Shown: positions 35,646 to 36,596 of the stretch, piece after piece
Layout: each line of letters starts with the position of its first letter
Position numbering within the stretch: position 1 is the stretch's first letter
IMG/VR virus record: IMGVR_UViG_3300032893_000002
Location: 110,668-174,667 of that record
DNA: 64,000 bases
DNA from: a virus
Reading direction: 5' to 3' (one strand)
Position numbers and translations under genes: made by a program
Notes under the pieces: generated by a model
Database searches by the model: none
Told to the model about the DNA's origin: nothing
What the model saw: the letters and a program-made list of their open reading frames with translations, nothing else

Positions 35646-36596
35646 TCAATCCTTTCGAACAAGATCGAACATCTGAATCGTTTTAACAGGCGCAAATTTT
35701 TCTTTATTCTTTCTAACGCCAGGAGTATAGTAACCACTGTCGTTTACAAACTGTATTCCTTTCTTATGCATTTCTTGCATTAGATGGATAAAAGCGAAAT
35801 CTGCCAATCCTCGTTTCGTTGTATCTGCTTTGCACGTTATATCTTGCCCGAATCCCGCCCTGCCAATTGCAGATGTGCCAAAACTACACGCACACGGTTT
35901 TCCATCAACGTAGTATACATATGCGAAGTAGTTTTCGCAATCAATTTTATCATAGAAGGTTTCTATCAGTCTAACATCTCTACCAATTGTTAACCTGAAG
36001 AACTTCTTTGCGTGTTCAGATTCTTTCCAATCTTCAAAAACTTTGATTGCATCTTTATAATTATCAGGACTTAAAACTTGAATTTCAGGCTTTAAATCTT
36101 CACGAACATGCTTGAGCGTATTACGAAGACTACTATAAGTTCGGCCTTTTATCTCTGAAAGGATTTTTGCATCCTGGATAATGTCATCGCTTGTTTTAAC
36201 TTTATGCCAACCCTTTGTTTGTCCGAGAAACCATTCGGCATAACCTATTGTAACATCGCATATCTTAACAGGATGTTTTGATAAAGGCGTTAGCATATCT
36301 ACCACACGCAGAATATCTTCTACTTCCGCAATCGGTGTATGTAAGAAAAATGTTGGAGTAGAATCGAATTTTTTAACTACAGGAATTATTTTTACTGTAT
36401 CGTGGCTATTTACGTCTTCGTTTAAGAATAGCTTTAAACGGCCTACATTCAGATACGCGAATGGGTAAATTCTTGAATGCGCATACAATACATCCGATTG
36501 CATTGAGTATAGCAATTGAAAAATACTTTCAAATCTTGCAGTATGCGTTACGCGAATAAAACCTTTCAACTCTTGTGCTTCAAACAATGAGGACAT
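35646..36596 (-). CDS. DUF2156 / LPG-synthase-C-like (MprF C-terminal-domain family) putative aminoacyl-tRNA-dependent transferase
   Basis: The C-terminus FIHLMQEMHKKGIQFVNDSG ... VRKNKEKFAPV parallels the MprF C-domain FISLMLWAKEEGYQWFNLG ... LRSYKEKFDPVW. Confidence 0.5.
   Translation of the reverse strand: MSSLFEAQELKGFIRVTHTARFESIFQLLYSMQSDVLYAHSRIYPFAYLNVGRLKLFLNEDVNSHDTVKIIPVVKKFDSTPTFFLHTPIAEVEDILRVVDMLTPLSKHPVKICDVTIGYAEWFLGQTKGWHKVKTSDDIIQDAKILSEIKGRTYSSLRNTLKHVREDLKPEIQVLSPDNYKDAIKVFEDWKESEHAKKFFRLTIGRDVRLIETFYDKIDCENYFAYVYYVDGKPCACSFGTSAIGRAGFGQDITCKADTTKRGLADFAFIHLMQEMHKKGIQFVNDSGYYTPGVRKNKEKFAPVKTIQMFDLVRKD

Follow-up and report, generated by a model that had tools for sequence, protein, structure and literature searches.

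We analysed a 64,000-nucleotide stretch of viral DNA (IMG/VR record IMGVR_UViG_3300032893_000002, positions 110,668 to 174,667; hereafter the window) and focused on the gene at 35646..36596 on the - strand. This gene encodes a soluble, MprF-like double-GNAT transferase of 316 amino acids that belongs to the DUF2156 family (GNAT, Gcn5-related N-acetyltransferase). We propose that it is a tailoring enzyme of phage 7-deazaguanine DNA modification, which would N-acylate the primary amine of 7-aminomethyl-7-deazaguanine (preQ1) with aminoacyl-tRNA as the favoured donor. We place the probability of this reading as a whole at roughly 0.4. Its parts differ in strength. A functional link between the gene and the deazaguanine pathway is very probable, and the preQ1 amine is the probable acceptor. 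If that acceptor is granted, the chance that the donor is an aminoacyl-tRNA is about even or slightly better.

The window gene encodes a freestanding tandem-GNAT protein

The open reading frame (ORF) is unbroken from ATG to stop. Its start codon is supported because the N-terminus (MSSLFE or MPLFE) is kept across 22 metagenomic homologues with 45-94% identity. In Pfam, PF09924 (LPG_synthase_C, formerly named DUF2156) matched residues 75-305 over profile positions 37-291 of 298 with 55 bits (cut-off 27.5, E = 8.7e-15), and the sole other GNAT match, Acetyltransf_6, fell below its cut-off. A first-pass annotation of this DNA had read the C-terminus as the hallmark of LPG-synthase-C proteins. That reading holds: FIHLM lies at residues 269-273, KGIQFVN at 279-285 and RKNKEKFAPV at 295-304, and as sequence matches these motifs are far beyond chance. 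The motif RKxKxx[FY]xPV also aligns with the solved DUF2156 protein 2HQY. Among distant phage homologues, the protein of locus L008 clears the PF09924 cut-off (47.5 bits), and those of L011 (25.2 bits) and L009 (20.4 bits) are slightly under it.

The AlphaFold2 model, built from an alignment of the 22 homologues, had a mean predicted local distance difference test (pLDDT) score of 89 and a predicted template modelling (pTM) score of 0.86. It predicts two GNAT-like alpha/beta domains, GNAT I (about residues 10-142) and GNAT II (about 170-316), with a basic helix at 152-168 as the connector. The tandem GNAT fold suspected in the first-pass annotation is thus borne out by the model. The same annotation had weighed an ordinary acetyltransferase with a single GNAT domain and an intact Q/R-x-x-G-x-G/A coenzyme A (CoA) motif. 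We found two GNAT domains instead, and the site between beta4 and alpha3 is not intact; it reads T260-K-R-G-L-A265 with a variable first position, and the motif glycine is missing in the relatives P0024, P0025, P0026, P0028 and L015b.

When the model was compared with the PDB using Foldseek, 2HQY ranked first (E = 4.6e-16, TM scores 0.76/0.81) and is by far the closest solved structure. It was followed by MprF synthase domains, FemX, Sbb17/Sba18 and CoA-dependent tandem GNATs. A full-length structural alignment was obtained for the model with 2HQY, L-PGS and MprF. The protein is a PF09924 member of the freestanding, 2HQY-like branch.

The connecting helix, alpha(+), has the sequence RTYSSLRNTLKHVREDL, with K150 ahead of it. 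Among 111 cellular relatives, 97-98% share G151 and R158. In DUF2156 enzymes the alpha(+) helix between the GNAT domains is the element that binds the tRNA acceptor arm (PMC8913301), and by analogy the helix of the window protein is a putative aminoacyl-tRNA binding element.

The window protein has an isoelectric point (pI) of about 8.7 and is basic like all of its phage relatives. Its Kyte-Doolittle hydropathy peaks at 0.82 over 19 residues, so there is no transmembrane segment, and in its 316 amino acids the N-terminal integral-membrane flippase domain is absent. The model terminates in a beta strand (305-314) two residues ahead of the stop, which means that the C-terminal amphipathic helix is absent as well; a terminal amphipathic helix that contacts the membrane has been described for PaMprF (PMC13534887). 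As it has neither the flippase domain nor the terminal helix, the window protein is not an MprF.

Database searches placed the gene in uncultured phages. PHROGs and NCBIfam gave zero matches to the protein, and tblastn against 50,697 phage records found no match to it or to three distant homologues. Megablast of the 16 kb surrounding the gene found no match among deposited phages. By these sequence searches, a cultured phage bearing the gene was not found. Pattern scans matched one IMG/VR contig and two JGI metagenome contigs and no GTDB genome, while an exhaustive HMMER search with the family profile returned 6 representatives at E <= 1e-30 and 42 at E <= 1e-10.

The gene lies among 7-deazaguanine DNA modification genes

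The first-pass annotation had stated that a standalone phage copy of this gene has no obvious role. This was wrong, as it overlooked a neighbourhood of preQ1 and DpdA genes for 7-deazaguanine DNA modification. QueC (7-cyano-7-deazaguanine synthase; 33575..34297, -; PF06508, E = 2.5e-61) sits 1.35 kb downstream of the DUF2156 gene. FolE (GTP cyclohydrolase I; 29012..29650, -; PF01227, E = 1.5e-62) performs the first step in the synthesis of preQ0. A DpdA-type DNA guanine transglycosylase of 365 amino acids is encoded at 27451..28548 (-) and matched phrog_887 (E = 1.8e-41), whose annotation is 'queuine tRNA-ribosyltransferase'. A tblastn search with this DpdA hit 188 phage records, and among the matches listed most were annotated as queuine/queuosine tRNA-ribosyltransferase or dpdA-like. 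QueF, the nitrile reductase that converts preQ0 to preQ1, is encoded at 12799..13209 (-; PF14489, E = 4.1e-29), and its catalytic cysteine (in SLCPLT) and its ESKSLKLY motif do not vary among the aligned sequences. DpdA together with QueF in a phage predicts preQ1 in the DNA itself (dPreQ1) (Hutinet et al. 2019 and 2023; PMC6884629, PMC10516641). PreQ1 is also made by E. coli. From their sequences, QueC, FolE, QueF and DpdA make up the set expected to place preQ1 in the phage DNA.

Between QueC and FolE lies an ORF of 167 amino acids (33069..33572, -) with no significant Pfam match. BLASTP found its homologues in the same slot in the related loci L001, L002, L005 and L006, and it is present in every locus of the window clade. 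We considered that it might be a divergent QueD and rejected this because of the lack of a Pfam match.

All genes of the window are on the - strand and the content is phage-like, with a family-A DNA polymerase (PolA) fused to a uracil-DNA glycosylase domain, RecA, a clamp loader and several GIY-YIG and HNH endonucleases. No terminator-like site was predicted on the - strand from 38000 to 27000, which agrees with linkage of the genes there. In total there were 10 terminator-like sites (7.3 expected), all on the non-coding + strand, and promoter-like sites occurred at chance level; for these reasons we drew nothing from the sites that were predicted.

Linkage to preQ1 genes recurs in other gene orders

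In the clade of the window gene the order is DUF2156 ... QueC - 167-amino acid ORF - FolE ... DpdA (L001, L002 = L004, L005 and L006/L007). The 176-kb IMG/VR contig of L002 also encodes QueF, about 19 kb away. Four further arrangements came from homologues with 23-30% identity. Locus L008 has the order QueC-QueD-QueE-FolE-QueF-(277 amino acids)-DUF2156-DpdA, and L014 has PolA-DUF2156-DpdA-QueF-QueC-QueD-QueE-FolE with a gap of 8 nt between DUF2156 and DpdA. In L015 the order is PolA-DUF2156-DUF2156-x-x-QueF-QueC-QueD-QueE, and in L011 it is PolA-DUF2156-Vut_1/YhhQ-SDR-DpdA-DpdA (SDR, short-chain dehydrogenase; the DUF2156-to-DpdA part is at 4997-9287). The preQ0 transporter YhhQ belongs to PF02592 (PMC6884629). 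The 16 kb of L011 contain no synthesis genes, and this locus may be a salvage-based version of the system.

Que and/or DpdA genes were present in 9/9 loci with at least 5 kb of flanking DNA on both sides. QueF occurs in four of the five arrangement classes, and QueD and QueE are present in L008, L014 and L015. Because the gene is linked to preQ1 genes in several gene orders, we conclude that the enzyme probably modifies the preQ1 base.

The next sequence clusters are cellular and lack Que and DpdA genes; cluster B is from bacteria of the candidate phyla radiation, and the archaeal-type locus of a cellular relative (L016) has no Que genes either. Other cellular relatives are fused to various domains (P0067 and P0082 are examples of such fusions), some to CxxCxxCC and others to Mur ligase, PGA_cap plus RimK, or TrmB. 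We looked for aminoacyl-tRNA synthetase fusions among the nearest cellular relatives as a clue to the donor, and there were none. In L008 the gene between QueF and DUF2156 (9090-9923) has a weak CxxCxxCC match (PF03692, E = 0.039). As a possible partner, a CxxCxxCC protein was seen only as this weak match upstream of DUF2156, and none of the candidate window ORFs tested had one.

In L015, two DUF2156 paralogues of 325 and 317 amino acids lie in tandem (9043-10954) immediately after PolA. P0033 and P0056 cluster with the first copy, and P0028 and P0183 with the second. The arrangement suggests, by its gene content, a heterodimer or two successive transfers.

A survey of viral QueF loci gave a different picture. 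DpdA was found in 69/80 of them within the DNA examined. We rejected the idea that DUF2156 is a general companion of viral QueF: no DUF2156 gene was present in any of 78 further loci within the DNA examined, which reached at most 10 kb to either side of QueF. Because of this result, DUF2156 is a rare, clade-specific addition to the preQ1 pathway. It fills a niche that is occupied elsewhere by the tailoring enzymes DpdM and DpdN.

Conserved residues separate the two GNAT domains

We compared conservation in 22 window-clade, 10 distant phage and 111 cellular sequences. Common to all three groups are P88, G151, R158, W190, K256, G280, N285, K298 and P303, and in the cellular group N285, K298 and P303 are conserved in 94-97% of members. 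P88 aside, these residues map to the basic helix and to GNAT II. The residues conserved only in phages (L4, F5, Y38, S41, Y48, N50, G52, N59, P72, F200, R201, G205 and D207), on the other hand, map to GNAT I and to one loop of GNAT II (200-207).

In characterised DUF2156 enzymes the acceptor is bound by GNAT I, and the aminoacyl-tRNA by the alpha(+) helix and GNAT II; charge reversal in the helix kills activity (PMC8913301, PMC6103681). The pattern seen here is the one expected for a conserved donor site combined with a new acceptor site.

Proposed mechanism and the tRNA-Lys element

From the family, fold and gene linkage described above we infer the acceptor, donor, timing and biological role of the enzyme as follows. 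FolE, QueD, QueE, QueC and QueF (QueD and QueE possibly being supplied from outside the window) would produce preQ1, and DpdA would swap it for guanine in the phage DNA. The DUF2156 enzyme would then N-acylate the primary amine of the 7-aminomethyl group on DNA-borne dPreQ1, or else would act on the free base before insertion. The donor, preferably aminoacyl-tRNA, would dock through the basic alpha(+) helix 152-168 and GNAT II, while the phage-specific GNAT I would hold the deazaguanine. The product would be N-aminoacyl-dPreQ1, which would shield the DNA from host nucleases. The preQ1 primary amine is the only strong nucleophile that the linked pathway produces.

We favour the aminoacyl-tRNA donor because of family precedent and because of phage Mu Mom. 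Every biochemically characterised PF09924 enzyme uses aminoacyl-tRNA (PMC6103681, PMC8913301). The two tandem paralogues of L015 recall the stepwise action of Fem enzymes, an analogy that would also favour this donor, and such paralogues could build a dipeptide in some lineages. FemX and Sba18/Sbb17 provide established examples of N-acylation of primary amines from aminoacyl-tRNA. In its most specific form, the proposal is that uncultured phages make N-aminoacyl-7-aminomethyl-7-deazaguanine, possibly lysyl-dPreQ1, in their DNA with an amino acid taken from charged tRNA by DUF2156; we regard this version as tentative.

A tRNA-Lys(CUU)-like element with a D-arm insertion of about 30 nt and U37 lies between the DUF2156 and QueC genes (34669..34775, -). 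It scored 23.7 bits with the Rfam tRNA model at 34681-34733, under the gathering score of 29, and ARAGORN made no tRNA call in this interval. The element may be an unusual tRNA or else a pseudogene. L095 and L001 carry intact tRNA-Lys(CUU) genes at the syntenic position between DUF2156 and QueC (10828-10902 and 11482-11558, respectively). L008 carries a different tRNA-Lys(CUU) at 17698-17773, 6.7 kb from its DUF2156 gene, and 58 QueF loci without DUF2156 contained 14 tRNAs, 0 of them Lys. The occurrence of tRNA-Lys near DUF2156 in two arrangement classes is a weak hint of an aminoacyl-tRNA donor, and it is uncertain that the element is part of the system.

Evidence against the proposal and alternative explanations

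Several observations weigh against the proposal of a preQ1-tailoring, tRNA-dependent enzyme. Some of them concern the pathway. Neither the 64-kb window, which covers part of the genome, nor the loci of the window clade yielded a QueD or QueE gene; these genes may lie in another part of the genome, which is larger than 110 kb, or the host may supply them. QueF is 22 kb away from the DUF2156 gene in the window clade, and the 0/78 result shows how seldom the two genes are companions. All relatives are metagenomic, and the L008, L011, L014 and L015 classes may belong to one broad viral group, so that the independent lineages probably number fewer than five. Others concern the donor. 2HQY was reported with acetyl-CoA in its active site although it, too, is without the canonical Q/R-x-x-G-x-G/A motif, and the Helicobacter pylori DUF2156 protein HPB8_1270 was reported to contribute to lysine acetylation of RNase J and acts genetically as an acetyltransferase (PMC10700544). 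As 2HQY shares both the basic helix and the RKxK motif with the window protein, these two features cannot tell the donors apart, and in a DNA enzyme the basic helix could equally bind DNA. Genome size, finally, is a confounder of the tRNA-Lys hint.

Because 2HQY reportedly carries acetyl-CoA, this donor is a serious rival. One possibility is that the pathway and the preQ1 amine are as we propose and that the donor is acetyl-CoA or another acyl-CoA, giving N-acetyl- or N-acyl-dPreQ1. Such a product would be related to derivatives that are already known, the N-formyl and N-methyl ones. We consider this alternative as a whole to be less likely than our main proposal, and an acyl-CoA donor to be the less probable choice even when the preQ1 acceptor is granted. 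The canonical CoA motif is missing and its glycine is not conserved in the distant phage members; Acetyltransf_6 reaches only 12.4 bits against a cut-off of 22; and the tandem paralogues of L015 suit stepwise aminoacylation better than a single acetylation. The characterised PF09924 enzymes all use aminoacyl-tRNA (PMC6103681, PMC8913301), and the CoA bound in 2HQY could mimic the 3' end of a tRNA. Another possibility is that the context is indeed deazaguanine metabolism and the acceptor is something else, namely a different intermediate, the Q-family bases of tRNA or a protein such as DpdA. Gene linkage shows association with a pathway and not the identity of an acceptor, L011 combines a YhhQ-type transporter and two DpdA paralogues with no QueF in its 16 kb of sequence, and HPB8_1270 was reported to act on a protein (PMC10700544). 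This is improbable, however, as QueF is found in all but one of the five arrangement classes, the pathway creates no good acyl acceptor other than the preQ1 primary amine, and the later queuosine genes QueA, QueG and QueH were not seen in these viral loci.

It could also be speculated that the protein is a canonical MprF-like lipid aminoacyl transferase which alters the surface charge of the infected cell, and that its Que neighbourhood is coincidental. Membership in PF09924 fits this idea, and lipids are indeed the substrates of freestanding DUF2156 enzymes like ErgS (PMC8913301). Lipid modification is unlikely, though, because the protein is soluble and basic and has no flippase domain or membrane helix, and the C-terminal amphipathic helix is absent too. 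In addition, sequence searches did not pick up MprF chains in the PDB, not even when the family profile was used at E <= 10, the gene stands repeatedly among PolA, DpdA and QueF in varied orders, and its GNAT I residues are phage-specific. We give this explanation very little weight. Of the two roles raised in the first-pass annotation, the decoration of a nucleotide or DNA precursor is the favoured one, and the aminoacylation of membrane lipids is disfavoured. Equally remote is the idea that the protein targets cell-wall or peptide precursors, whether as a Fem-like or as another transferase, or that it serves host takeover as a translation-directed GNAT by consuming or altering aminoacyl-tRNA. 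There are no cell-wall genes near the phage loci, whose conserved neighbours are for DNA modification and replication, and toxin GNATs are single-domain proteins.

Other features of the window and related loci

The window polymerase gene (20632-23133, -) encodes a family-A DNA polymerase with an N-terminal domain of the uracil-DNA-glycosylase superfamily. In the distant lineages PolA is without this domain, and the DUF2156 gene comes directly after PolA. Three GIY-YIG and two HNH genes, all on the - strand (29595-30359, 7256-8041, 46488-46928, 10117-10701 and 26585-27202), are dispersed across the replication and modification module. An 881-amino acid protein (30414-33059, -) has a shoulder domain of the major vault protein (PF11978, E = 6.4e-21) together with weak, sub-threshold vault-repeat matches. 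Its homologues in deposited phages (42-43% identity) were found only in LR756500, LR756501 and LR756503, which are uncultured huge phages of 462-735 kb.

Genes for a nicotinamide/nicotinate phosphoribosyltransferase (NAMPT-like) and a NADAR domain protein (49029-50606 and 14440-15135, both -) are auxiliary genes related to NAD salvage or ADP-ribose. The region 428-4106 (-) encodes an ABC-transporter ATPase, a weak, below-threshold match to an inner-membrane permease and a 605-amino acid protein with a C-terminal OmpA domain, a gene set that is unusual for a phage. An R2K-clade ATP-grasp protein (41674-42486, -; PF18299/PF14243) is a possible amidoligase and turned up in none of the other DUF2156 loci.

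Two relatives of the window phage carry amber-suppressor-like tRNAs with a CTA anticodon (L001, 2763-2837; L006, 13673-13746), which may reflect recoding of TAG. The related phage contig L005 has IS605-type TnpB/TnpA insertions at 5707-7270 and 18510-19616, one of which adjoins a DpdA fragment of 98 amino acids (PF23859) upstream of PolA.

Comparison with known systems and implications

The closest known proteins are the freestanding bacterial DUF2156 proteins BT_3689 (PDB 2HQY) and HPB8_1270, at 13-16% identity to the phage protein. The phage clade differs from them in having its own GNAT I residues and an FRxxxGxD (FR..GRD) loop. Cellular DUF2156 proteins are acidic (median pI of cluster C 5.9, versus 8.7 for the phage protein) and have no Que/DpdA context. 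Compared to the C-terminal domain of MprF and other aminoacyl-phosphatidylglycerol synthases (PF09924; PDB 4V34-36, 6LV0, 7DUW), the phage protein is without flippase and terminal helix, and its gene is found in a setting of DNA modification, not of membrane biology. FemX and Sba18/Sbb17 belong to other Pfam families and act on a peptidoglycan precursor and on streptothrisamine instead of on a nucleobase.

Phage Mu Mom transfers glycine from Gly-tRNA to adenine in double-stranded DNA (PMC13219725). Like the activity proposed here, it is a phage enzyme of the GNAT superfamily that diverts charged tRNA to DNA hypermodification and restriction evasion. On the other hand, Mom is a dimer of single GNAT domains with a helix-turn-helix-like insertion, has an unrelated sequence, targets the N6 of unmodified adenine and gives a product that rearranges (PMC13219725). 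The window protein does not have this architecture; it is a tandem GNAT, and its target would be a pre-installed deazaguanine amine that yields a stable amide. In phage 7-deazaguanine pathways, DpdM and DpdN act as N-methyl- and N-formyl-transferases on preQ1 (PMC10516641). They share with the DUF2156 candidate the niche beside DpdA, QueF and preQ0 genes and, as proposed, the same aminomethyl nitrogen, and they differ from it in having unrelated folds and donors. By analogy, the window enzyme would resemble FemX/Sba18 in its chemistry and Mom, DpdM and DpdN in its biology. The paper on DpdM and DpdN mentions neither DUF2156, GNAT nor aminoacyl (PMC10516641), and our literature search found no paper that ties DUF2156 or any GNAT to deazaguanine pathways.

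The new tailoring step is a well-supported genomic prediction, and its product would be an undescribed DNA modification. Phage DNA is known to contain eight 7-deazaguanine derivatives, and to our knowledge only DpdM and DpdN tailor the preQ1 amine. As a preQ1 tailoring enzyme, DUF2156 predicts a new, bulkier and maybe cationic derivative and a new class of DNA-hypermodification enzyme. If the donor is aminoacyl-tRNA, this would be the first non-lipid substrate for an MprF-type domain, and the principle of a charged-tRNA co-substrate seen in Mu Mom would hold for another fold and another base as well. Among tRNA-dependent DNA hypermodifications, it would be the second one known and the first on a guanine derivative. 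Such an enzyme would be a candidate for use in site-directed DNA decoration, and the modified base could block restriction enzymes or CRISPR nucleases.

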